DNA of 64,000 nucleotides from the IMG/VR virus record IMGVR_UViG_3300042861_001913; one strand, 5' to 3'. The stretch comes from a virus. The position numbers and the translations under genes are program-made. Position 1 is the stretch's first letter; every line of letters begins with the position of its first letter. Below, one piece after another: positions 1 to 36,735 of this stretch. The notes beneath the pieces were generated by a model that was not told where the DNA came from, made no database searches, and was given only the letters and a program-made list of their open reading frames with translations.

Positions 1-428
1 GTTATCAAGCTCAAGGTCAACAACAGAATTGGGGTATGCCTCCTAATGATCCTAACGCTCGTTATGCTAGTGGATTACCTATTGCAGCATTTAGTATGGC
101 TGAGATGGAAGCAGTTAATCGTGCTGAATTTGGGTTGATTGATGGTGCTAAGAATTTAGGTAAACGTGTTATTAATCGCGTTAGTAAAGATGCAGGTGAT
201 GTTAAACAATCATTTGTTAATAAAGTTGCACAACAGAAGCAAGTTAGAGCGGGAAGATTACGTAAATACGGATCTGCAACGTATCAAGCTGGTAAAACTG
301 CATTGAAGACTAAAACTGGTAAAGGTTTAGCTATCGGTACTGGTGCATTAGTTGGAACTGGTGCATTAGTTGGAGCATACCGTGGATTAAGTGGTAAGAA
401 ACAAACTGTAATAAATAACTATAACTAA
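1..428 (+). CDS. small Gly-zipper virion-associated family protein; 5' end probably outside the window
   Basis: The frame is open from nt 3, upstream of the ATG at 36. It has a PIAAFSMAEMEAVNRAEFG motif shared with the next ORF, and a C-terminal GxxxG-rich hydrophobic segment with a basic tail. Confidence 0.5.
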   Translation, partial: YQAQGQQQNWGMPPNDPNARYASGLPIAAFSMAEMEAVNRAEFGLIDGAKNLGKRVINRVSKDAGDVKQSFVNKVAQQKQVRAGRLRKYGSATYQAGKTALKTKTGKGLAIGTGALVGTGALVGAYRGLSGKKQTVINNYN

Positions 429-433
429 CGTCT

Positions 434-1069
434 ATGAATTATACAAATCGTCCTATTGCTGCCTATACGATGGCAGAATTTGAATCATTAACTAGTGACA
501 ATGCTGATTTCGCTAGAGGTAAAGATAAGAAGAAACGTAAATCTCGTGCTGGTTTATATGCAGGACTTGGTGCTGGTGCAGGATTAGCGGGAATTGGTAC
601 TAGATATGCTGGTGCTGAAATTAGTTCTCGTATGGGAAGTAAATACTTAGATAGACCTCAAGATAAAATGACAGCACAAGGTTATTTAAAAGCTCGGAAA
701 GCTGCAGAATCTGGTGGTGGTGGAGAATTATTTAATCGTGATATTAAAGCTGTTAAAGATTTAGGTGGGCGAGTTAAGAACTACGATTATAAAGGCGCAC
801 CAGGACGAGCATTTGATAGTGTTAAAGCAGGTGGTAATCGAGCTAAATCAGCATTTGAAACTATTGTAGGTAATGCTCAATCTTATGGTGCTGCTGAACG
901 TGGTTCTGCTACAGGTATGAAAGGATTTGGTAAAGCTGCTATTGGTGGACTTAAAGGTATAAGTGCTACTCGTGCTGGTAAGATTGGACTTGGTTTAGCT
1001 GCTGCTGGTACTGCTGCTGGTGCTGGTTATGGTATTTACAAAGCAATGAAGAAAGGTAAGAAAAAATAA
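434..1069 (+). CDS. leader-family protein (ADFARGKDKKKRK leader plus Gly/Ala-rich hydrophobic segments)
   Basis: N-terminus is PIAAYTMAEFE..NADFARGKDKKKRK followed by GLYAGLGAGAGLAGIG. C-terminus is AAAGTAAGAGYGIYKAMKKGKKK. Paralog of 1069, 6514, 7240, 7587, 12549 and 22062. Confidence 0.6.
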   Translation: MNYTNRPIAAYTMAEFESLTSDNADFARGKDKKKRKSRAGLYAGLGAGAGLAGIGTRYAGAEISSRMGSKYLDRPQDKMTAQGYLKARKAAESGGGGELFNRDIKAVKDLGGRVKNYDYKGAPGRAFDSVKAGGNRAKSAFETIVGNAQSYGAAERGSATGMKGFGKAAIGGLKGISATRAGKIGLGLAAAGTAAGAGYGIYKAMKKGKKK

Positions 1070-1350
1070 TGCAGTTATTATCTGACTACCGAATAGCTGA
1101 TTTCGCTAGGACTCCTGGTAGTAAGGATAAGAAACCTCGCAAGTTTAGCTTACGTAAATTAGGTAGAGCTACATTAACTAGTGAAGCTGCTAGTGGTGCA
1201 GCTAATGGAGCGCAAATCGGTGGAGTCTTAGGTTTAATATCTAGTAACCCTAAAAATACATTTCGTAGAACATTAAGAGGTAGTGCTGCTGGATTAGCCA
1301 TTGGTACAGGACTCGGTATAAGACACGCATATAAACAACAAAACAAATAA
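1069..1350 (+). CDS. leader-family protein
   Basis: MQLLSDYRIADFARTPGSKDKKPRK leader and C-terminal GSAAGLAIGTGLGIRHAYKQQNK. Its start overlaps the preceding stop (TAATG). Confidence 0.55.
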   Translation: MQLLSDYRIADFARTPGSKDKKPRKFSLRKLGRATLTSEAASGAANGAQIGGVLGLISSNPKNTFRRTLRGSAAGLAIGTGLGIRHAYKQQNK

Positions 1351-3168: not shown

Positions 3169-4357
3169 GTTATCGCGCCCACTATCCTACTTTTTTCTTA
3201 CTATGGGTTCAGTTTCTAATTTTCTTACCGATAAGTTGCAAGCTAAAGTTGCCGAAACTCTAGTAGACGATACTATTGCTCGTCTGCGTCAGAGAACTAA
3301 ACTTATTGATCAATTCATGCCTATTAAGACGTATGAGGACGATGAGTTCCTAGCATACGTAAGTGAACGTCTCACACCAGTTGCGAACTTTATTGCTCCT
3401 GGTGCTGAACCTCCAGTTATCTCTCATGGTGGTTTCCGTCGAGTAATCGGTCAACTAGCTAAGTTAGGTAATAGCTATTCATTCGATGAAGTAACTCAGA
3501 AACAGATGCGTAAGGCAATGGAAGAAGCTGCCTATAAACGCGCTAGTGTTATGACCATGAAGTTAACTGATAACTCCGTCATTAAGGGTACTAACGATAT
3601 GCTCGTTAAGTATCTCTATGGTCACATTGAGGGGATCGTCCAATCTCATGCTGATAGACTTACTAGCATGGCTTGGCAAGTTGTTCAGACTGGTCAATTG
3701 AGTGTATCTGATGCAATTACTAAGGTTGCATGGACAATTGATTTCCGTCGTCCTGGTGCTAGTTATAACCACTTCCCTGATGCTCTTGTTGCTACTGGTA
3801 ACACTGCATCTCCTAAGTTGAACAAGTGGACTGACTACGCTAATGCTGATGGTATCGCTAACTTAGAAGATGCTGTAACTACTTATGTCAATACTAATGG
3901 TTACAAGCCTGATCTCATCGTAATGAGTAATACTGCATTGCGTGATCTTCAGAAACAAGCATCTACTATTGCTCGTGCTAGACAATCAGTTGGATTTGCA
4001 CAAGTAGGTTCTGTTAGCTTCCCAATGTTACAAGAGGTAATGGCTTCTAATAACCTACCTCCTATTAAGGATTATGATGAGTTCTATCAAGTAGATAATA
4101 CCTACTCTGGTAATACTAATACTATTGATAGCTACATCAGTAATGCTCGATTCCTTAATGAGAATTGCTTCGTATTCCTCAAGGATGGAATGGGTGAGCA
4201 AGCTATTGGTACTCCTGAAGAACAGAAAGTTGTTAAAGATGGTGTATTAACAGGTACTGAATCTCCTGTAATGGTACGTGTTTATGAGAAGACAACTGTG
4301 CCTATCAACGATGTTTTGCAAGCGATTGAAACTTTTTGTAGTCGCCTATTTAAGTAA
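3167..4357 (+). CDS. major capsid protein, HK97 fold, lambda gpE-like; probably exon 1 of an intron-interrupted gene
   Basis: Layout resembles lambda gpE (W.D....D.I, KPDLIVMS, C-terminal VP..D...). The likely true start is the ATG near 3203, because the 3167 ATG lies inside the upstream tandem repeat. The ORF stops 1-2 codons into group I intron-like sequence. Confidence 0.6.
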   Translation: MLSRPLSYFFLTMGSVSNFLTDKLQAKVAETLVDDTIARLRQRTKLIDQFMPIKTYEDDEFLAYVSERLTPVANFIAPGAEPPVISHGGFRRVIGQLAKLGNSYSFDEVTQKQMRKAMEEAAYKRASVMTMKLTDNSVIKGTNDMLVKYLYGHIEGIVQSHADRLTSMAWQVVQTGQLSVSDAITKVAWTIDFRRPGASYNHFPDALVATGNTASPKLNKWTDYANADGIANLEDAVTTYVNTNGYKPDLIVMSNTALRDLQKQASTIARARQSVGFAQVGSVSFPMLQEVMASNNLPPIKDYDEFYQVDNTYSGNTNTIDSYISNARFLNENCFVFLKDGMGEQAIGTPEEQKVVKDGVLTGTESPVMVRVYEKTTVPINDVLQAIETFCSRLFK

Positions 4358-4673
4358 TTAAGTAGTAAAAATTCGGTGAATTGCTGGAAACTCCAGAAGT
4401 GGACAATCAGCAGCCAAGCTTAACCAGGAATGGTTTTGAAGGTTCAACGACTAGGTTTCGAGTCCAGACCGGACAGTAACAAACCCACGAGTGCCGAACA
4501 TCCCAAGTGGATGATGATATAGTCTGAACAGTAGATATAACACATGAAACTACTGATACGTAGGATAAAGAGCTTACGTGGTAACAAAATGATCAATGGT
4601 TTTACCAGTAATTTATTCTCCCAAGAATCTGTATGCTCAAGTAGTTAGATAATAATTCCCTATTTCTAACTAG
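4352..4673 (+). mobile_element. group I intron (IA2-like, apparently ORF-less); boundaries tentative
   Basis: Conserved J8/7-P7 word GATATAGTC (4516-4524) pairs as P7 with GACTA in CAACGACTAG (4445-4454), as in the T4 td intron. P2-like hairpin CTGGAaacTCCAG (4384-4396). Several P9-type hairpins are present. Candidate IGS is GAATTG, with a P10 pairing TCGGT/ACCGA and a G at 4673. Confidence 0.6.
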
Positions 4674-4723: not shown

Positions 4724-6025
4724 ATGCCACAATTTATTTATTTGGTGACAAACTCAATTAATGATAAAAAATATGTTGGACAAACAAATAGGACAATTGA
4801 AAAGCGTTGGTCAGAACATATTAGAGCCGGTAATTATGTTGGAACTAAAAGTTTATTATCAAAAGCAATTAAGAAATATGGTGTAGATAAATTTAAAATT
4901 GAAATTATTAAAACTTTAGAAACAACAGATCAGTCAGAAATTGATAAAACTGAAGTTTATTTTATTAAAGAATATAATGCTTTAACACCTAACGGTTATA
5001 ACGTATTAAATGGTGGTAAAGGTTGTTTTCTAACACCTGAAGGTAAAGAGTATTTAAAAAGAACGATGACGAGTCGTTGGCAGAATAAAAGTTATCGAGC
5101 TTCTATGTTAGGTAGCACTTTAATTTCTGCTAGATTAAAAAACAATACCTCTGAAGCTAAATTAAAACGAGGTAATAGTTTAGTTAGAAATCGTCGTTAC
5201 TTAATAACTACACCAGATGGAATTGAGTATTGTACTTACGGTGTAACTCACTTACAACAACTAGATTTAGATGTAAGTAGTTTAATTAAAGTTGCTCGTA
5301 ATAAGATGACTAATCATAAAGGTTATAAAGTTAAATCACTTAATGATGATTATGTAACTGTAGATAAAACATATTTAGATTACGTTAACAAATACGAATG
5401 TATTAGTTTAAATAAAGATAACTACAGTTTTTGTTCTTATGGTATTGATGCTATTAAAGAACAACTTAAATTAGATATATGTCAGAAGACAATATCACAT
5501 CACATTAATAACGCTAATTTAATTAACGGTTATCAAGTTAGAGATATTAATGCAGAACCAATTATTAAACAATATCTACCAGATGCTGAACGCTTCATAT
5601 TGACAACACCTGAAGGTGTTAGTTTCTGTCGTTACGGTATGGAAGATTTAACTGAAGAAACTGGATTAAATGCTAAAGCGGTGTACCCATTAATGAATCC
5701 AAATAGTCCTCGTTATGGTCGCAAAATTAACGGTTGGAGTTGTGTTAGAGCTAATGAATCAGAGGAAACAAGAGATAAGTTATTAGCTGATAAAGCTGCT
5801 AAGTTAGCTGAAGATAAGTTAATCAATGATGCTAAAAAGAGTTGGCAACAAGTAGTTAATAAACGTTACCTATTAACTAACTTAATAACTAATGAACAGT
5901 TATGTTGTTATGGATTAGTTCATCTCCGAGAATCACATGGTCTAGATGGTAGTTGTTTAATTAAAGTAATTAAGGGTAAAATTAAACATCACAAAAACTG
6001 GACGTGCATTAAGATAGAAAACTGA
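4724..6025 (+). CDS. GIY-YIG homing endonuclease with four C-terminal repeat modules
   Basis: N-terminus is FIYLVTNSINDKKYVGQT..R...H......YNVLNGG (GIY-YIG). The C-terminal half has four repeats of about 50 aa of the form Y(L/I)LTTP.G...C.YG.....L......L. Confidence 0.85.
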   Translation: MPQFIYLVTNSINDKKYVGQTNRTIEKRWSEHIRAGNYVGTKSLLSKAIKKYGVDKFKIEIIKTLETTDQSEIDKTEVYFIKEYNALTPNGYNVLNGGKGCFLTPEGKEYLKRTMTSRWQNKSYRASMLGSTLISARLKNNTSEAKLKRGNSLVRNRRYLITTPDGIEYCTYGVTHLQQLDLDVSSLIKVARNKMTNHKGYKVKSLNDDYVTVDKTYLDYVNKYECISLNKDNYSFCSYGIDAIKEQLKLDICQKTISHHINNANLINGYQVRDINAEPIIKQYLPDAERFILTTPEGVSFCRYGMEDLTEETGLNAKAVYPLMNPNSPRYGRKINGWSCVRANESEETRDKLLADKAAKLAEDKLINDAKKSWQQVVNKRYLLTNLITNEQLCCYGLVHLRESHGLDGSCLIKVIKGKIKHHKNWTCIKIEN

Positions 6026-6054
6026 CATTAACAGCGAAGCAAATAACACTTATA

Positions 6055-6084
6055 ATGATGGTAGTAATTATCATCATTTTTGTT
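6055..6084 (+). terminator. rho-independent terminator after the homing endonuclease gene
   Basis: 9-bp stem ATGATGGTA / TATCATCAT with loop gtaat, followed by TTTTGTT. Confidence 0.6.
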
Positions 6085-6512
6085 ATGGGTAGACGTATTG
6101 GTAGTAAAGATAAAGTTAAACGACGCAATCAATTTGGTTTAACTAGAAGTGATCTAATTAATGAACGTAAGAAACAAGGAACTACGCAATAGCGGGATCT
6201 GCGGTAGGTGGGACAATTGGATATGGTGTAAGTAGAAAATTAACTAAAAGATTTGATGCAAATATTAAGTTAGCTCAAAATAATTTAGATGATGCAATTG
6301 CACGTAAACCTACTTTAATGAATGACGTTAGACTTAGTGCAATGAATGATGATGTAATAAATCAATATAAGAATGCTATTAATAAAACTAGAAATGCAAC
6401 TAGATTACTTAAAGTTGCAACACCATTAGCAGGAGCAGCTATAGGAACTGGAATTACAATGGGTTACTTAGCTAATCAACGGGCAAAGAAACAACGTAAT
6501 AGGCTCAAATAA
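6085..6512 (+). pseudogene. leader-family gene split by a frameshift
   Basis: MGRRIGSKDKVKRRN.. (6085-6192) ends at a TAG. The Gly-zipper part (AIAGSAVGGTIGYG...ATPLAGAAIGTGITMGY) continues in the -1 frame from about 6171 to 6512. Confidence 0.4.
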
Positions 6513-6513
6513 C

Positions 6514-6825
6514 ATGGCACGTAAACTAGGTTCTAAAGACAAGAAGAAGCGTAAACTTAGATTAGTTAACATAGGTACAGTAGGTGGACTTGGTGCAATT
6601 GTAGGAAGTGGAGTTAATATGATTGGACTTAAATCATTAACTGAACAACGAAAACGTGAGTTAGGTGTAAGTAATTTAGACATAAGGGATAAACGACGTA
6701 AACTAACTGAACTTATTGCTAATGATTATCGTAATGATTTTAAATCAGGTAAACGTATTGTAGATGAAGCTAAGAAAGTAGCGGTACTTACATATCAAGC
6801 TAAACGAGATACGGGAGCTAAGTAA
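6514..6825 (+). CDS. leader-family protein
   Basis: MARKLGSKDKKKRK followed by VNIGTVGGLGAIVGSGVNMIG. Confidence 0.55.
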   Translation: MARKLGSKDKKKRKLRLVNIGTVGGLGAIVGSGVNMIGLKSLTEQRKRELGVSNLDIRDKRRKLTELIANDYRNDFKSGKRIVDEAKKVAVLTYQAKRDTGAK

Positions 6826-6848
6826 ACGATGATGAGTTACGTGAAGTT

Positions 6849-7079
6849 ATGGAACGTCCGAATAAGTTAATTGAGCAGTTTACTAAACAAGCTAAAGATA
6901 GAGGTAAATCGCAATCTAATGTTAGACGTACTATAACTAAACAACTTAAAAATGATGCTTATAACGCAAGTAATAAAATCATTAAATCACGTCTATTAGG
7001 AGGTGCTGCAATTGGAGCATTAGCAGCAGGTGGAAGTTATGCAGTTTATAAGAAGTTAACTAAACGTAAGAATAAATAA
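6849..7079 (+). CDS. small basic protein with C-terminal Gly-zipper
   Basis: LLGGAAIGALAAGGSYAVYKKLTKRKNK tail, like other family members. Confidence 0.45.
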   Translation: MERPNKLIEQFTKQAKDRGKSQSNVRRTITKQLKNDAYNASNKIIKSRLLGGAAIGALAAGGSYAVYKKLTKRKNK

Positions 7080-7239
7080 CTCTATTTAACTTGTTTATAT
7101 AACTTCTGCAATACTTTATCTCTACTAACATTTTTAACTTTAGATTCTCTAGTTCTAATTCTCTTTTGTAATGACTTACTTAACCTATACCATTTAGACT
7201 TAGGAATATACATGATAGATAACTTAAACAACTTTAACT

Positions 7240-7593
7240 ATGATAACTCTAATCAATGATCTGGCTAACTTCGCACGAGGTAAAGGTGATAAGGATAAAC
7301 GTAAGAGACAAGTTAAACGTGCTGGTAGATGGTGGACTCCTAATCAAGTAACTGCTGCAACTAGACCTGGTAAAAAGAATGCTGTATTAGCAAGTAAGAA
7401 AATAAATGGAGTTGTTAAATATAAACTACTTAACTTTGGTGACAGTACAATGAGTGATTGGACTAAACACAAGGATAAGAAGAGACGTTCAAATTACTTA
7501 TCTCGTAGTGGTGGTATTAGAAATAAGAGTGGTGAATTAACTAAAAACGATAAGTTCTCAGCTAATTACTGGAGTAGGAAAATTAATTGGTAA
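7240..7593 (+). CDS. leader-family protein with basic C-terminal domain
   Basis: MITLINDLANFARGKGDKDKRKRQ leader. No hydrophobic segment. W/K/R-rich C-terminus. Confidence 0.55.
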   Translation: MITLINDLANFARGKGDKDKRKRQVKRAGRWWTPNQVTAATRPGKKNAVLASKKINGVVKYKLLNFGDSTMSDWTKHKDKKRRSNYLSRSGGIRNKSGELTKNDKFSANYWSRKINW

Positions 7594-8441
7594 CTAATAT
7601 GTTTCTAATATCAGATGTAACTACATTTAGTAAGAAAAAAGGTAAACGTAATAACTTATTACTTGGTGGCGCAATTCTCGGTACTGGTCTATTAGGAGTT
7701 GTAGGAGTTAAATCTTATCTTCGTAATGGTAAATTAGTTAGACAATATAATCGTAATCAGGTTGTTAAAACTACCGTTAAATCAACTAATGTAAACGAGT
7801 TAAATAGTTATTTAAGTAATAGTAACTTTAGTTTTAATGAGTTGTTTAGTAAGTTTAATTTAAATAAAATAGACGATGAGTATGAAGGTAATCTATTTGG
7901 TGCAATTAAAGATAAATACGTTAAACAACATAACTTAAGTAAGTTAGAACAAACTACTTTAAATAAATATATTAAACATGATGGACATGACGATATTAAT
8001 AACTATCTTATAACTGGTGATGCTACAGATGAAGTTAAACAAACTGTAAATAACTTAAATAACTTATTTGATAGACTACCTAAGTTAAATAATAGTGAGA
8101 CTTATAGATATGTTAAAGATGTTAATCCAAATGATTTAATATCTAACTACAAAATCGGAAGTATAGTAACTGAACCTAGATTTACATCAGCTACAACTAA
8201 TGAAAGATTTAATGACGATTTCCTTAACTACTCTAAAGTGAGGTTTAAGATTAAATCTAAATCAAATAACTCTAATGCAGTTGATATACGTGGGTTTAAT
8301 CCTAAAGAAGAAGAGGTTATATTTAAGAGAGGAACTAGCTTTAAAATAAATAACATTAAACAACATGAGTTTACTTATGAAACTAGATCAAATAAAAATA
8401 AACTCTGGAAAGGTTATGAAATTGAAATTGAAGAAGTCTAA
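7587..8441 (+). CDS. leader-family protein with a Gly-zipper segment and C-terminal ADP-ribosyltransferase domain
   Basis: Probable start is the ATG at 7599 (MFLISDVTTFSKKKGKR). Hydrophobic LLLGGAILGTGLLGVVGV follows. The C-terminus has YIKHDGHDDINNYL, then an R-S-E triad: ETYRYV, RFTSATT, PKEEEVIF. Confidence 0.75.
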   Translation: MVTNMFLISDVTTFSKKKGKRNNLLLGGAILGTGLLGVVGVKSYLRNGKLVRQYNRNQVVKTTVKSTNVNELNSYLSNSNFSFNELFSKFNLNKIDDEYEGNLFGAIKDKYVKQHNLSKLEQTTLNKYIKHDGHDDINNYLITGDATDEVKQTVNNLNNLFDRLPKLNNSETYRYVKDVNPNDLISNYKIGSIVTEPRFTSATTNERFNDDFLNYSKVRFKIKSKSNNSNAVDIRGFNPKEEEVIFKRGTSFKINNIKQHEFTYETRSNKNKLWKGYEIEIEEV

Positions 8442-8478
8442 GTCTACTAGATTTGATTTTCCAATTGGGTTAATTAAA

Positions 8479-8499
8479 AGGAGTTAACTAATAACTCCT
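8479..8499 (-). terminator. hairpin between convergent genes (AGGAGTTA actaa TAACTCCT)
   Basis: 8-bp perfect stem, followed on the minus strand by TTTAATT. Confidence 0.4.
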
Positions 8500-8506
8500 A
8501 ACTCTA

Positions 8507-9343
8507 TTAACTATTAACTAACTTACGAAAACACATATCTAACATAGGAATCATTTCAACTTCATAAGCTGATGTATTAGGTCTATATCTACCTTTACCT
8601 AACTTAACGTTAATTTTAGTTGGATTATTACCTGTAGTTGTCTTATAAGTATCAGCAACTAAGTTAGCGAATCTGTGCATTGTAGATTTATCTGCAACAA
8701 AACCCTTACTCTTAATATAGTCACTTAAAATGACATATCCATTATGAGTTGTTAGTTCCGTAGTTACAGTTAACTCATTTAACATTACATCAAGATTAGG
8801 AAAGTTAGTTACTGTGGCATTTCTAAGTTGTTTATATTCTGTAGTTATATTACTTAACTCATCTACTTTATCGCTTAGTAACTTAAGTGAATTAAGAATA
8901 GCTTTATTATCATCATTAATAACAGCACCAGTTAAATCCTTAACCCAATTAACGAAACCATATTGTGCCAACTTACGATAAGTGTTGCGTGCGGTAACAT
9001 TAGCAGCTTTAGATTCAAATGCGTAATACTCGATAATTAAAGTTGCTGCTGTTGATGTAATAATTTTACAAGTTCCACCATCTTTATTTCCTTCTAGCTG
9101 TGGACTAAAAACGTTACCCAGTAAAGGTTCTAGCATTTTTAGCTGTGTACTAACACCAGTATTATCAGCTAATGGGTTTACTATTCTTTGAGACATTGTT
9201 TGTTGTGTAACTCCACATAATCGCGCCAATCCACTAATACTAACTCCAGCATCCCGTCCATCTGGAGTAATGTAAAACTCAACATCATTAATAACAGAGG
9301 GTTGTACAATAATTTTATCTGACGTGACTAATTCATCCTTAAT
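8507..9343 (-). CDS. Bro-like modular DNA-binding protein paralog (P1)
   Basis: The track ORF starts at a TTG at 9229. The conserved N-terminus VEFYITPDGRDAGVSISGLARL continues upstream in frame to an ATT at 9343. It shares its middle and C-terminal modules with 23917 and 46835. Confidence 0.6.
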   Translation of the reverse strand: MKDELVTSDKIIVQPSVINDVEFYITPDGRDAGVSISGLARLCGVTQQTMSQRIVNPLADNTGVSTQLKMLEPLLGNVFSPQLEGNKDGGTCKIITSTAATLIIEYYAFESKAANVTARNTYRKLAQYGFVNWVKDLTGAVINDDNKAILNSLKLLSDKVDELSNITTEYKQLRNATVTNFPNLDVMLNELTVTTELTTHNGYVILSDYIKSKGFVADKSTMHRFANLVADTYKTTTGNNPTKINVKLGKGRYRPNTSAYEVEMIPMLDMCFRKLVNS

Positions 9344-9488
9344 TAACTACACTTGACTTAGATACAAACTAACTAACTATCTAAGTCACCTCATTATAAC
9401 TGATAAATAGTTAAAATACATAACATTCTCCTTTTTTCTTACAAGTTAAACATTTCCAATTATAATTAAGTAAACTACATTAATTAAT

Positions 9489-9794
9489 ATGGCATTTAAA
9501 TTACCATCATTTAATCTACTTAGAAAAGCTGCTTCTAAACGTGTTCCTGGTGTTGCAGGATCTAAAGTTGGATCACTTGGTAATAATAGAACTGGAGTTA
9601 CTAAAACCTATGCAACTAGAGGTGCTGCACGTAAAGCTAATCAACTTGGACTATTAAGTAGACTTAAACCACGTCAACCTGTTAAACCACTTCAACCATC
9701 TCAACCTAAAGGACTTAGTAATCGAGCATTTGGAGCAAGTAGAACACCTAAAATTCGTGAATCATTTGGTAGTTACAACAAACGAGTTAAGTAA
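9489..9794 (+). CDS. very basic small protein
   Basis: 101 aa, rich in K/R/G/P. No hydrophobic core. Located in the virion module. Confidence 0.45.
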   Translation: MAFKLPSFNLLRKAASKRVPGVAGSKVGSLGNNRTGVTKTYATRGAARKANQLGLLSRLKPRQPVKPLQPSQPKGLSNRAFGASRTPKIRESFGSYNKRVK

Positions 9795-9795
9795 T

Positions 9796-10578
9796 ATGAC
9801 AATAACTAAGCAACAACTTATAGATAAATACAATGAAGTTTATGCAGCAGATAATGGTGTTAATAAGACCTTCGTTGAATTAACTAAAGATGAGAAGGTA
9901 GAAGCATTACTACAATTCGTAACTGCTATTAGTGGTGGATCTGGTGGTGACGCTAGTGCCACTAATCAAACAGCCGTTCAAGCTAATCCAGGAAGTGATG
10001 CAACAAAAGCAGTAGCAGTACAAGGTGTAACAGGGGGTAAATCTATTCCAGTTACAGGTACATTTTTCCAAAATATTCAACCTGTCAGCATGACTGCTGC
10101 ACCTGCGGGATTAGCTTACGCATCCTCAACCACAATTACTCGCGCTGCTAACACCACAACTTATACTGCTTCTGCACCAAACTTTGATGTTTATGGCGGT
10201 CTATTCCAACTTCAAAATATAGGCGAAGCTGGTAAAGGTATATTCCTTTCTTATTTTGAAATATCTCTCAATCTATCTTCTGTACCAGCAGGTATGACTT
10301 CTTTTGCGGTACACTTATACCCTACAGCACCTACAAATATTGCAGATAATAGTATCTGGACAATTGGTTCTGACCCTGTTCTAGACCCTGTAGGTTTCAA
10401 TGTACCTATGAGTTTAGCTAAAGGAGGGGGTAAGGTTGTTGGCGTTATTAGAGACTTAAATCAATTGTTTATTTTAACCAGTTCAAGTTTGTGGGGATAT
10501 CTGGTTACTAACGGTGCAATTGTCCCGGCTGCTAACTCAGAAACAGGGACTATACGCGCTAGGAGTTTTGCACCATGA
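9796..10578 (+). CDS. putative fiber or receptor-binding protein (AT-rich N-terminus, GC-richer C-terminus)
   Basis: The ATG at 9796 lies right after the stop of the previous ORF, whereas the track start at 9730 overlaps it. Composition shifts upward after about 9900. Confidence 0.35.
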   Translation: MTITKQQLIDKYNEVYAADNGVNKTFVELTKDEKVEALLQFVTAISGGSGGDASATNQTAVQANPGSDATKAVAVQGVTGGKSIPVTGTFFQNIQPVSMTAAPAGLAYASSTTITRAANTTTYTASAPNFDVYGGLFQLQNIGEAGKGIFLSYFEISLNLSSVPAGMTSFAVHLYPTAPTNIADNSIWTIGSDPVLDPVGFNVPMSLAKGGGKVVGVIRDLNQLFILTSSSLWGYLVTNGAIVPAANSETGTIRARSFAP

Positions 10579-22061: not shown

Positions 22062-22847
22062 GTGATTAAAAATATGTTTATTCTAAATGATGTTAATTTA
22101 AGTAACTATGGTAGAGGTAGAGATCGTGTTAAACGTAAAAGTAGAGGTAACTTATTACGTAATGCTGCAATTGGAGTTGGTGGATTAGCAGTTGCAGGTG
22201 GATTAGGTTATATGGCATTAAAAGGTAAAGGTAAATCAGTAACTCAACCTAGTATAACTAAACCTAGTATAAGTTCTCCTGTAACTAGTAATACTGAAAT
22301 AGTAAAGAAAGCTTCAAAATCAGAAGCTAATTTAAGCGATGAACAAGAAAAATGGTTAAAAAATACTTTAGCTGAAATAGAAAGAAAAAGTAATATTCAA
22401 GCTAGAAAAACCTATCTCGGTTCAGTTGAACTAGCTGAGAATACTGGTAATATTAGTGCAATAGAAAGAATATTAAAAAACGAGGGATTAGAAGTTAATA
22501 GACGTGAATTAAATAACAACATGATTAGAGGTAGAAAGAGCGATTTAGGTTGGGGTTATGATGGTGATGATACTTATAATGGTATGACGGTAGGACAAAT
22601 AATGAGAGACAATGGAGGATTAAAAACAATAAAAGATAAGAAACTAAGAAAGAAAGTTGCGAAATATTTAGTTAATACTACTGTACCTAAACAGAGAGAT
22701 AAATATGAGAACTTACGTAGTTTATCTAGAAAACAAAGAATACTAGATATGATTGAAGGTAAAAAACCAGGAATCGGTAGAGAAAGATATGAAGTAGCTG
22801 AACAACGTGCTTGGTATAGGAGTCATAATAGAACAAACAACTTTTAA
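22062..22847 (+). CDS. leader-family protein with Gly-zipper segment and a C-terminal domain of about 190 aa
   Basis: Probable start is the ATG at 22074 (MFILNDVNLSNYGRGRDRVKRKSRG), followed by NAAIGVGGLAVAGGLGYMAL. Confidence 0.55.
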   Translation: MIKNMFILNDVNLSNYGRGRDRVKRKSRGNLLRNAAIGVGGLAVAGGLGYMALKGKGKSVTQPSITKPSISSPVTSNTEIVKKASKSEANLSDEQEKWLKNTLAEIERKSNIQARKTYLGSVELAENTGNISAIERILKNEGLEVNRRELNNNMIRGRKSDLGWGYDGDDTYNGMTVGQIMRDNGGLKTIKDKKLRKKVAKYLVNTTVPKQRDKYENLRSLSRKQRILDMIEGKKPGIGRERYEVAEQRAWYRSHNRTNNF

Positions 22848-34657: not shown

Positions 34658-35497
34658 ATGAACGAACGTAAATTAATAGATGAAATTAAACGCTTAGTTA
34701 ACAATGATGTAATTATTGGTTACTATAATGGAACTACATTTACTGACGATAATGGTAAAACATACGCTTCCAGCTATTTAGTAACTAATAATTCTCCTAT
34801 TGGTAGAGGATTCATAGTTCCATATGAAGGTAAATGGTTAGTTGTAGTAGCTAATAATAATCAAGAGGTAAGAAAAAATATAATAACTAGTAGAAAGAAG
34901 ATAAGTATTGAAGATAAACCTAAATCTCTTACTATTGATTATTTACTAGCTCATACAAATCTATTTAGGCGGAGTAACACATTTTATACAATTAGAGATA
35001 ACAAATGGAAAAAGTATGAATTACCAGAAACAATACCATTAGAATACTTAAATTATTATATTGATAGTAACTATATTGTTATAAAAAGTGATCAAAAGGA
35101 TAAGAGATTTAATCAATTAACCGTTTTAAAAGATGACGTATTTACAACCTATACATATCCAGAAGAACTTCCTGTATTAAAAACATGGCGCAAAGATGTT
35201 TTTAATACTTATAATGTTATTAATAACAATTATGGTAAATTCTGGGCTACAGTGTATCAAAATAGATTTTACGAGATATTATATGAATTTTCACAATTAA
35301 ATTTCGTTATTGAAGCATTAAGTTTAGAACAATCTATTAATATATATATTGTTAAATGTCGTTTTACTGAGGGTAAAATTACTAGTTGTAGGAAAAAACC
35401 ATTTAAAGTGAAAAGTCCTAAATTAGATACTAATATTATCTCTCCTGAAGAAGTAAACAAACTACTTATTGTTAGCACTTATATTAAATTTCAATGA
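34658..35497 (+). CDS. hypothetical protein
   Basis: 279-aa ORF with no recognised motif. Confidence 0.4.
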   Translation: MNERKLIDEIKRLVNNDVIIGYYNGTTFTDDNGKTYASSYLVTNNSPIGRGFIVPYEGKWLVVVANNNQEVRKNIITSRKKISIEDKPKSLTIDYLLAHTNLFRRSNTFYTIRDNKWKKYELPETIPLEYLNYYIDSNYIVIKSDQKDKRFNQLTVLKDDVFTTYTYPEELPVLKTWRKDVFNTYNVINNNYGKFWATVYQNRFYEILYEFSQLNFVIEALSLEQSINIYIVKCRFTEGKITSCRKKPFKVKSPKLDTNIISPEEVNKLLIVSTYIKFQ

Positions 35498-36735
35498 ATA
35501 ACCATTATCTGTCATCTCAAATAACTGGATTAACTACTAACATTGTTCAAGAGTTAGTAAGTCCACATAAACACACAATCCGCGATTATGAATCCATACT
35601 TCGTAATCCCTGGGCTAAGGAATGCTGTAATATTAAATCACTCAGAGCAACTGTAACTATAGGTGATTATCAGAATAAGAATAAAGAACATCAGGACTTC
35701 ATACTTGATGCTATAGCTAATATGGATGGCACATTATCTGACATAGTAGGACGATTATGTAGTGCTATGCCATTTGGACATAGTAGTGCTGAAATAGCAT
35801 TTAAACCAATACGTTCATTTGGTAAGACTCGCTACACACTGAAGGGAATTAATCTACTCGATCCTAAGAGAGTGCGTTATGCTGGTGCTGCTGGTAAATT
35901 AACTCATATTCGATATAACGATGGGATTCGTGCATTATGGATTCCTTATAACAAGTGTCTTCATATTACTAACGGATTAGTTACTAACTATAACGAACGT
36001 ACTGCTTATGGTGATCCAGAGTGCGAAACAGCCTATCCATACGTCAAACTATACGAGATTATATTCAGTGAAATGGCGGTTAGTGCTAAGACACTTGCGG
36101 TAGGTATATTACTAGGTCGTGCTGATACTGAGAATACTGTTTACTTACAAAATAAAGATGGTAGTCAATACATAGACGTTAGAACTGGTAAACCTGTAGC
36201 TATTAGTGCTGTAGCTAACCTAGCTGAACAGTTTCAGAACCTTGAAACTCACAGTCATATAGTTACCGATAAACGTAATGAAGTTAGTGCCTTACAGATA
36301 CCAGCAGGTGAACAGTTCTGGAATCTCGCAGAATCTATGTTGCGTAAGAATATATTTGCTGCATTTGGTGTACCTAGTATGGTGCTTGACGAAGGTAGTG
36401 GCGGTATTGCAACTGCTACACTCAGTGTTAAACATTTGTCAATTCTAGATAGTACAGTTGAAGCAACAGTTAAGAAGATTAGAGATCAACTGATTGAGAA
36501 AGTTATACGTCCACTTATTATATGGAACTATGGTGTTCAAGATGATTATGGTAGCTTCGCAGTTACTAATGTTAATGATCCGACTCAGGAGAGCGCACAG
36601 ATACAAAACTTCATAACTGCATTTACTACACAAGTAATACCCATGACTGATCTAGAAGCAATGAATAAGTTTCGTGAGTTGATGAAATTATCACCAACTA
36701 CAGAAGTTAGTCAGCCGGAGACTCAAAGCTATTAA
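35494..36735 (+). CDS. putative portal protein (Mu gp29/DUF935-like pattern)
   Basis: The block NIFAAFGVPSMVLDEGSGGIATATLSVKHLSILDSTVEATVKKIRDQLIEKVIRPLIIWNYG resembles the conserved portal core. Recognition is from memory only. Confidence 0.45.
   Translation: MNNHYLSSQITGLTTNIVQELVSPHKHTIRDYESILRNPWAKECCNIKSLRATVTIGDYQNKNKEHQDFILDAIANMDGTLSDIVGRLCSAMPFGHSSAEIAFKPIRSFGKTRYTLKGINLLDPKRVRYAGAAGKLTHIRYNDGIRALWIPYNKCLHITNGLVTNYNERTAYGDPECETAYPYVKLYEIIFSEMAVSAKTLAVGILLGRADTENTVYLQNKDGSQYIDVRTGKPVAISAVANLAEQFQNLETHSHIVTDKRNEVSALQIPAGEQFWNLAESMLRKNIFAAFGVPSMVLDEGSGGIATATLSVKHLSILDSTVEATVKKIRDQLIEKVIRPLIIWNYGVQDDYGSFAVTNVNDPTQESAQIQNFITAFTTQVIPMTDLEAMNKFRELMKLSPTTEVSQPETQSY

Follow-up and report, generated by a model that had tools for sequence, protein, structure and literature searches.

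An ADP-ribosyltransferase carried behind an exchangeable N-terminal cassette in the head module of an uncultured siphophage, and its candidate role as a virion-delivered effector

How might a phage bring a host-modifying enzyme into the cell as infection begins, when that enzyme is fused to none of the known head proteins? The question is raised by a gene at 7599..8441 (+ strand) of the virus record IMGVR_UViG_3300042861_001913 in IMG/VR, a 64,000-nucleotide stretch of a phage genome with 32% GC that we refer to as the window. The gene encodes an ADP-ribosyltransferase (ART) behind an N-terminal cassette of about 57 residues. A first-pass annotation made from the letters of the window had proposed that the product is packaged and injected, like T4 Alt but with another delivery module, and this is still the best reading of the locus. 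We put a probability of roughly 0.55 on an ART that is loaded into the head, is targeted there by its cassette and is ejected into the host. Packaging is suggested by the synteny of the locus, by the modularity of the cassette, by a head-maturation protease encoded in the same operon, by A-x-F motifs that are enriched in head proteins, and by virion mass spectrometry of the distant cyanophage Pam2, a cultured phage in which proteins from the same genomic slot were found. Judged by its sequence and its predicted structure, the gene product is best explained as an active mono-ADP-ribosyltransferase of the R-S-ExE type.

The ART domain spans residues 63-280 (7785..8438, +; residues are numbered from the Met at nt 7599) and consists of a helical N-terminal subdomain and a beta core. 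Pfam profile PF03496 (ADPrib_exo_Tox) matched residues 100-266 at 37.1 bits, against a gathering score of 23.4 (E = 2.7e-9). An exhaustive profile search of 1.84 billion representative proteins returned 1053 relatives, nearly all of them through the ART domain and often inside proteins of 800-4285 amino acids. An alignment of 73 shorter relatives gave an AlphaFold2 (AF2) model with a mean pLDDT of 85.3 and a pTM of 0.76, and residues 63-280 mostly exceeded 90. With this model Foldseek returned 142 PDB matches at E <= 0.001, led by CDTa, iota-Ia, C2-I, VIP2, C3bot, Certhrax, Vis, Plx2A and Tre1 (probability 1.0, E ~1e-10; TM-score 0.63-0.69 when normalised on single-domain ART targets). A profile of the 73 relatives run against PDB chains placed Tre1 (3.5e-37) and Vis (5e-37) nearest, followed by SpvB, Ia, VIP2, XopAI, CDTa, HopU1, ExoS/T and C3, with Tre1, Vis, SpvB, Ia and VIP2 at E from 1e-37 to 1e-22. 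A search of the PDB with the single sequence yielded only a weak match to XopAI (E = 0.025), and NCBIfam only a partial XopAI match far under its cut-off. In PHROGs, the matches fell on the ART parts of phage proteins: the C-terminal part of phrog_595 (positions 311-505 of 513, the match being limited to the ART part), phrog_15144 (an ART family) and a stretch of phrog_802.

The catalytic residues sit where the fold requires them. R170 (codon 8106..8108, +; ETYRYV) lies on strand 167-173, S197 (8187..8189, +; RFTSATT, an STS-type S-x-T motif that here reads S-A-T) on strand 196-199, and the ExE glutamates E237-E238-E239 (8307..8315, +; PKEEEVIF) at the start of strand 239-242, where AF2 places E239. 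Across the alignment S197 and E239 are invariant, and R170, E237, Y124, N134, L137 and F248 are conserved in at least 90% of sequences; Y124, N134 and L137 belong to the helix motif YIKHDGHDDINNYL (residues 124-137). Residues ~63-280 are a genuine R-S-ExE ADP-ribosyltransferase and a member of the PF03496 / R-S-E clade. The first-pass annotation had called a C3/VIP2-type ART with its R-S-ExE residues intact, and the family match above cut-off, the conservation, the model, Foldseek and the PDB profile search all bear this out; the fold prediction that it named as a check recovers the ART fold. It had rightly put the domain in the C-terminal part, with a start at about 7944 that is too far downstream: the helical subdomain at the N-terminus is itself part of the ART fold, so that the folded domain begins near residue 63 (nt 7785). 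The order and identity of the motifs are likewise as it described them, but of the spacings that it called canonical, the one from R170 to S197, at 27 residues, is shorter than in C3, iota and VIP2. In the R-S-E clade an ExE motif goes with arginine specificity, so the enzyme is probably an arginine-specific transferase. With C3, VIP2, iota-Ia, CDTa, Vis and Tre1 it has in common the fold, the helical N-terminal subdomain, the Arg on beta-1, the S-x-T on beta-2 and an ADP-ribosylating turn-turn (ARTT)-like loop with the ExE. It is only 14-22% identical to them, however, and its delivery context is a phage head module in place of a binary toxin, Sec or type VI secretion (T6SS) route.

The gene itself is sound. 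The open reading frame (ORF) annotated at 7587-8441 is real and on the + strand, and every string quoted from it, including the leader string MFLISDVTTFSKKKGKR (residues 1-17), is present in the translation. We favour ATG 7599 over the possible start TTG 7587, 12 nt upstream and not conserved, because MFLISD is identical in all homologues while the 1-4 codons ahead of that ATG differ between loci (VTN, V, LNN). From this start the gene has 280 codons and a stop at 8439-8441. At least six contigs from separate metagenome datasets (L006-L011) encode the full 280-residue protein at 99-100% identity, so the gene is no assembly artefact. Nineteen contigs carry either the window ART allele or a second, P0005-type allele, and in three of them (L012, L013, L014) the A6 run that encodes the KKK of the leader (7632-7646) is one base short, which cuts a 12-residue leader off from the remaining ORF; in L014 an extra G-to-A change gives an A8 run. 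The site may be hypermutable, or the change may be a homopolymer error.

The P0005-type allele (L003, L019, L020) is an ART-like sequence ~30% identical to the window ART and stands behind the same cassette. Its catalytic region reads IEKNEYVY, with the first Glu of the ExE displaced, and no Pfam hit is precomputed for it. Its activity may differ from that of the window ART or be absent. Together with the frameshifted copies in three contigs, the EKNE in place of ExE is what speaks for a degenerate domain that has lost catalysis and is retained because it binds something or serves a structural purpose. We give that idea hardly any credence for the window protein, since the window allele keeps R170, S197, E237, E239 and the Y/N/L helix motif that are conserved in the 73 relatives, and its model is confident and of canonical geometry.

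Ahead of the enzyme, residues 1-57 make up the cassette, all on the + strand. It opens with a leader peptide, MFLISDVTTFS (residues 1-11; 7599..7631), whose end has the x-x-F-[S/A] form common to head-module proteins. There follow a basic patch, KKKGKRNN (7632..7655), partly encoded by the A6 run, and a transmembrane-like Gly-zipper hydrophobic segment, LLLGGAILGTGLLGVVGV (residues 20-37; 7656..7709). Last comes a hairpin motif, VKSYLRNGKLVRQYNRN (residues 37-53; 7707..7757), that includes VKSYLRNGKLV, for which AF2 predicts a beta-hairpin at moderate confidence (strands 39-42 and 45-48). The first-pass annotation had described a fusion of a shared leader with a membrane-like segment, and both are there; what its account lacked is the hairpin. 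Over 13 cassette carriers the most conserved columns are V37, K38, Y40, R42 and G44, all within VKSYLRNGKLV, and on this alignment the hairpin is the most conserved element of the putative tag. The cassette had nothing significant in Pfam, PHROGs or NCBIfam, and a word-indexed search with its alignment found only two short fragments (P0155, P0156).

The cassette evolves differently from what it carries. Only five close homologues were found among 5.8 billion proteins, and across these residues 1-57 are almost invariant: the cassette is 93-100% identical while the ART domain behind it drops to ~30% (P0005). The cassettes of the window and L003 differ by 8 silent and 4 replacement changes, a pattern that, read at the codon level, shows purifying selection. 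In the same kind of comparison, the silent-site difference is 0.15 for the cassette and 0.43 for the ART domain. In L019 the cassette is identical to that of the window save for one silent change, and the attached ART domain is 29% identical; L020 has a window-type cassette followed, as far as its available sequence goes, by P0005-type sequence. Such alignments show recent exchange of the cassette between ART alleles.

Exchange extends beyond ARTs. Two proteins from the exhaustive search (P0044, P0139) and two viral contigs (L059, L063) have the full cassette with unrelated C-termini, and a degenerate DNA scan for the hairpin motif in 2.9 million viral contigs found 43 stretches. The parts also occur in other combinations. 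P0017 and P0024, which are more distant ARTs, begin directly at the hairpin motif; in L038 and L064 the N-terminus is the hairpin motif followed by a Gly-rich hydrophobic segment; in L066 it is leader plus motif with no hydrophobic segment (MYYIGELTTFEKKEINVKQYIRKGKIVR). Other viral contigs encode proteins of 490-740 residues built from units of leader, hairpin, hydrophobic segment and a serine-hydrolase-like domain. We see somewhat less than an even chance that the three-part cassette is an undescribed general tag by which a large clade of uncultured Mu-type-head siphophages loads polymorphic effectors into its virions and brings them into the host, with A-x-F as a recognition site of the head-maturation protease. 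Such a tag would consist of an F-ending leader, a basic hairpin of the form VK-x-Y-x-R-x-GK-x-V and a Gly-zipper helix, and its effectors would include ARTs, serine hydrolases, DUF5754 and unknown domains, arranged in eight-gene arrays or tandem units.

Several of these carriers have features of their own. The serine-hydrolase-like domains that follow a leader-hairpin-hydrophobic unit (L041 384-2609; L035 1-1482, - strand) contain ASGGG and GYSAGA. The 742-residue protein of L041 has two such units in tandem, the second opened by SMDADFASEQQVEVKSYMRNGKLV, and tblastn found no relative of it in GenBank phages; a comparable protein of L023 has a marginal match to the serine-esterase family DUF676 (20.4 bits against a cut-off of 20.3). 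In L064, 671-12420 holds eight leader-bearing genes in a row (180-1248 amino acids) adjoining the head operon. In L001, a 268-residue protein encoded at 254-1060 (-) opens with the hairpin motif (MKQDVKVKSYVRKGKLVKNYQRK) beside a helix-turn-helix (HTH) gene, on the strand opposite the head operon, and it has homologues at the same place in L035, L038, L041, L064 and L070.

What the hydrophobic segment does bears on two other accounts of the protein. With a mean Kyte-Doolittle value of 2.14 over its 18 residues, it could be a signal-anchor, and the ART an unpackaged, membrane-bound enzyme at work within the cell that makes it. Late in infection the ART would then enter the host cytoplasmic membrane, as would the small Gly-zipper proteins encoded nearby, and it would modify membrane-proximal host or phage proteins there, with consequences for, for example, division, lysis timing or superinfection exclusion. 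Several neighbours do have similar segments, and the paralogous segment of one neighbouring gene matched Pfam Gly-zipper_Omp at 21.6 bits, under the cut-off of 25. The division protein FtsZ is a substrate of Tre1, which the sequence profile places nearest among the solved ARTs. A promoter-like site at 6028-6056 (11/12 matches) and a terminator-like inverted repeat, AGGAGTTA-ACTAA-TAACTCCT, at 8479..8499 between the ART gene and the convergent gene 8507-9229, could set 6055-8441 apart as a unit of its own. We do not rely on a separate transcription unit, however, because the region holds no excess of promoter-like sites (15, against 19 expected). The distant orthologue P0009, moreover, has the leader and the hairpin motif but no hydrophobic segment, so that anchoring is not the conserved function; since P0009 and the ARTs that begin at the motif do without it, the helix is optional, and its dispensability in P0009 makes it unlikely as the targeting element. 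The leader is also found on non-hydrophobic proteins such as DUF5754, family members down to distant relatives are conserved in the head operon upstream of the capsid gene, and Gly-zipper proteins of Pam2 are present in virions. We consider a membrane-anchored enzyme of the producing cell unlikely.

The same N-terminus, a charged n-region followed by a hydrophobic h-region, could alternatively be read as a long Sec signal peptide on a C3-type exotoxin, a conversion toxin for other cells exported from the infected cell or lysogen, and the fold is indeed that of secreted toxins such as C3, VIP2 and iota. We regard this as very unlikely. Past the h-region there is no A-x-A type cleavage site, and the conserved basic hairpin stands in that place. 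Proteins with no h-region also conserve the 11-residue leader that precedes the charges, P0009 lacks that region too, and in the tandem-unit proteins the cassette is internal. Nor does the genome suggest a converting phage: the annotated part of the window holds replication genes for ribonucleotide reductase (RNR), DNA polymerase and thymidylate synthase, and no integrase or other lysogeny genes. A search of 185,579 species genomes found no relative of the cassette, only generic ART domains of 26-31% identity in unrelated bacteria; no prophages are therefore known, and the lineage appears lytic.

The position of the gene favours loading into the head. The ART gene lies within the virion module, as the first-pass annotation had it, and more exactly between the major head gene (phrog_29) and tail genes, among them a 2141-residue ORF whose homologues carry the tape-measure domain PF10145. 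In three lineages that have diverged from one another, those of the window, L023 and L033, the ART gene comes next to the capsid gene on its downstream side, and the cassette-bearing genes of other contigs adjoin the same type of head operon; the contigs of P0044 and P0024 are too short to show their gene context. The L033 capsid is 73% identical to that of the window and the ART 40%, so the structural core changes far more slowly than the ART. The first gene of the operon, of which the window holds the 3' end (3..428, +; an AEFG motif and a Gly-rich hydrophobic segment), encodes the protease and scaffold. It is full-length in L001 and L023, and there it matches the head-maturation protease family phrog_976 (E = 3.1e-7 and 1.6e-4, respectively). 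The portal gene, 35494-36735, matches Portal_Mu (PF06074, E = 1.8e-10). By these genes the source is an uncultured siphophage with a Mu-type portal and protease. The portal gene lies ~31 kb from the head operon, past tail and fibre genes, which is not the usual arrangement in tailed phages.

In the literature, an ART that is fused to a MuF or portal protein, or whose gene lies among head genes, is taken to be packaged in the head and injected (PMC9503650; PMC5512222), and the best viral structural match of the window ART is a head-morphogenesis (MuF-type) protein with a C-terminal ART; the close relative P0036 is a MuF-ART fusion as well. Such fusions (PMC5576092), a C-terminal domain swapped behind a constant N-terminus and the resemblance of the ART to the interbacterial toxin Tre1 could together suggest a MuF-like polymorphic toxin for bacterial competition, whose producer would need a cognate immunity protein. 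This we think highly improbable: Pfam finds no MuF domain in the window protein, and no small ORF is conserved downstream of it, the next gene being convergent, 240 codons long and replaced in related loci. MuF toxins have been described in temperate phages only (PMC5576092), while the annotated part of the window has no lysogeny genes and prophage relatives were not found.

Within the head operon one short motif stands out that may connect the leader with the protease. A[NDE]F occurs 8 times in the 2392 head-operon residues and 8 times in the other 16,910, a ~7-fold enrichment, and none of 1000 composition-preserving shuffles reached 8. The sites include the C-terminus of the protease-scaffold, the acidic scaffold-like protein and residues 61-63 of the capsid protein (3383-3391). 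There the sequence reads TPVANF-IAPG and may mark removal of a ~63-residue N-terminal propeptide. Its presence in protease, scaffold and capsid would fit a maturation-protease or docking motif.

The nearest cultured relatives, the Pseudanabaena siphophages Pam2 and PA-SR01, have capsids 26% identical to that of the window and a common head-operon core: an HTH gene, the protease (E = 3e-34), an acidic scaffold-like protein, a ~300-residue protein (E = 2e-20) and the capsid protein (E = 1.5e-37). The L001 protease is 32% identical to Pam2 gp14 over 261 residues (E = 3e-34), and the PA-SR01 counterpart of gp14 is annotated as 'Mu-like prophage I protein'. Both phages encode Gly-zipper proteins with A-x-F peptides between the protease and the acidic protein. 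In Pam2 gp17, (I/M)RKSA[NS]F is repeated four times, with N in three of the repeats and S in the fourth, and a GKSANF variant brings the number of sites to five; in PA-SR01 one gene of the region starts MRKSANFAS... and the next MKHFANF. In purified Pam2 virions, mass spectrometry detected gp15 and gp17 and did not detect the protease gp14 or the acidic gp18 (PMC9382816 Table S2); for PA-SR01, the virion proteins were analysed in its paper by SDS-PAGE without mass spectrometry. Because gp15 and gp17 were detected, proteins of this Gly-zipper and A-x-F style are virion components in Pam2, and these two occupy the same slot as the Gly-zipper proteins of the window and have the same features.

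From these observations we propose the following sequence of events. The ART would be synthesised together with the head proteins, behind a portable delivery cassette of ~57 residues made of a propeptide-like leader ending in F, a basic patch with a Gly-zipper helix, and a basic beta-hairpin. The cassette would take the ART into the assembling head, where the head-maturation protease may cut off the leader at the A/T-x-F site, between the Phe and the following S/A. At infection the ART would leave the virion with the DNA and, using NAD+, would modify a host protein as infection begins, and the hydrophobic segment may retain it at the membrane entry site.

A number of points weigh against this proposal. 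The whole lineage is uncultured, and that the ART, or any cassette protein, is present in virions is something we infer. The window Gly-zipper proteins have no significant similarity to Pam2 gp15 or gp17 (E of 1e-3 or worse), so that the Pam2 mass spectrometry serves as an analogy only. AF2 confidence is low over residues 1-34. A hydrophobic helix flanked by positive charge could equally be a membrane anchor inside the producing cell. Some members of the family are leaderless and begin at the basic motif (MARKLGSKDK...), so the leader is no universal targeting signal. The GSKDKKKRK form of this motif recalls the AT-hooks of HMGA-type proteins, a reading that we do not claim. Finally, the ART gene may be dispensable, because three contigs have it frameshifted in the A run of the leader.

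Head-packaged phage ARTs are already known, T4 Alt being established and the MuF and portal fusions predicted; what is new is the cassette itself, compact and in three parts, together with the swapping of cargo domains behind it and its distribution across a clade of uncultured phages. In T4, diverse internal proteins have only an N-terminal targeting peptide in common (PMC3012670), and the likeness to the present case is considerable. Both ARTs are made with virion proteins and are believed to affect the host as infection starts; in each phage, unrelated proteins share just a short N-terminal peptide (in T4 the capsid-targeting sequence, CTS), and each encodes a prohead protease. The window ART nevertheless is not of the Alt family: phrog_802 matches only 36 of its residues, 234-269 around the ExE, with positions 565-601 of 674 (E = 2.5e-6). 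The leader sequence also differs, and so does the likely cleavage motif, x-x-F before S/A in the window and L/I-x-E in the T4 prohead. Unlike the T4 CTS, the window tag is longer and of three parts, with a hydrophobic segment and a hairpin, and its phage is a siphovirus with a Mu-type portal.

The MuF fusions (SPP1 gp7 / Mu gp30) and polyvalent proteins also set an Alt/VIP2-family ART on a head-associated N-terminal module with swapped C-terminal effectors, just as two ART alleles (~30% identical) and unrelated domains stand behind the window cassette, and the literature predicts injection for them (PMC5512222, PMC9503650, PMC5576092). In contrast, Pfam finds neither MuF (PF04233) nor a portal or other known head domain in the window protein, its N-terminal module has only ~57 residues, no immunity-like ORF is adjacent and the lineage appears lytic. 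A third comparison is with ejection proteins (P22 gp7/gp16/gp20, T7 gp14-16), which lie inside the virion, contain hydrophobic segments, exit the capsid together with the DNA and contact the host envelope. The Gly-zipper proteins encoded next to the window ART fit that description, but similarity in sequence was not detected, podoviruses supply most of the known examples, and in the window type the hydrophobic module is joined to enzymes and occurs in multigene arrays.

Cargo selection has so far been understood only for the T4 CTS and for whole-domain fusions. Here a ~57-residue cassette, slower evolving than its cargo, appears to select cargo in a siphophage lineage with Mu-type heads. If so, it would be a second sequence-defined signal for packaging and ejection, injected effectors could be found in metagenomes by their tag instead of by their domain, and the tag could serve as a compact means of putting foreign proteins into capsids. 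Many metagenome datasets contain this uncultured phage group, and the ART would be an enzyme with which it modifies the host early in infection. Against GenBank phages, neither the region 6000-9500 (megablast) nor the ART (tblastn) had a match.

The ART is one of seven window genes with a related N-terminal signature, all on the + strand. Its immediate neighbour, 7240..7593, has the N-terminus MITLINDLANFARGKGDK, also excerpted as MITLINDLANFARGKGDKDKRKR... and LANFARGKGDKDKRKR, with the leader MITLINDLANFA, and carries a DUF5754 domain whose match in PHROGs is to an internal stretch of phrog_220 ('minor head protein and DNA pilot'). Further upstream lie two leader and Gly-zipper genes, 6514..7079 (MARKLGSKDKKKRK...) and 6085..6512 (MGRRIGSKDKVKRR...). 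In the head operon, 434..1069 (...NADFARGKDKKKRKSR) has Gly-zippers at both ends, and 1069..1350 (MQLLSDYRIADFARTPGSKDKKPRK..., with the N-terminal signature also excerpted as ...IADFARTPGSKDKKPRK) has one at the C-terminus. The last, 22074..22847, comes right after the tape measure gene and has a leader of the same style (MFILNDVNLSNYGRGRDRVKRKSR, MFILNDVNLSNY) followed by a Gly-zipper. A short N-terminal peptide is thus common to proteins that are otherwise unrelated: the ART, the DUF5754 protein, the product of the gene after the tape measure and a DUF5754 protein of L023, whose leader is MFYIKDVAKFS. The similarity is too short for significance with a hidden Markov model (HMM), so we counted motifs against shuffles instead: [DN]F[AS][RK] falls within the first 45 residues of 3 window ORFs, where 0.28 are expected. 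This count and the related start of 7240-7593 uphold the 'family leader' that the first-pass annotation had seen. An HMM of the N-terminus found no significant second copy among the six-frame ORFs of the window, the best non-self hits being 22062-22844 (E = 0.2) and 7228-7590 (E = 0.36).

Two of these genes are broken in the window. The gene at 6085-6512 is split by a 1-nt deletion in an A run (AAG-AAACAA, against AAGAAAACAA in L002, where it is intact at 144 residues). That at 6514-7079 is divided into two ORFs by another (GCTAAG-TAAAC, against GCTAAGATAAAC in L002 and L020, where it is intact at 190 and 188 residues). They could be pseudogenes, population variants or assembly errors. Between two leader genes, 7082-7231 (-) is a basic 49-residue ORF (MFKLSIMYIPKSKWYRLSKSLQKRIR...) that is kept in L001, L002, L005 and L020. 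L020 also encodes, at 8797-9999, a 400-residue DUF5754 protein with two copies of FAR-x-KG-x-KDK-x-KRK, one N-terminal and followed by a hydrophobic segment, the other internal (LATFARNKGSKDKRKRK) and just ahead of DUF5754; it looks like two units fused.

Downstream of the ART, the convergent gene 8507-9229 (-) encodes a 240-residue protein that weakly matches phrog_6287, the BstA family of abortive infection (E = 4.6e-4). The protein has 267 residues in L001 and is absent from L003-L005, where a DUF5872 gene comes after the ART. The major head gene (3203-4652) is itself split: residues 1-379 are encoded at 3203-4339 and the last 19 (SMVLPVIYSPKNLYAQVVR*) at 4593-4652 in another frame. The gap matches the group I intron family of Rfam (RF00028; intron at 4324-4544, 80.4 bits against a gathering score of 50), and a free-standing GIY-YIG homing endonuclease gene lies just downstream of the split gene at 4724-6025. 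The capsid genes of L002, L023 and L033 are without such an interruption.

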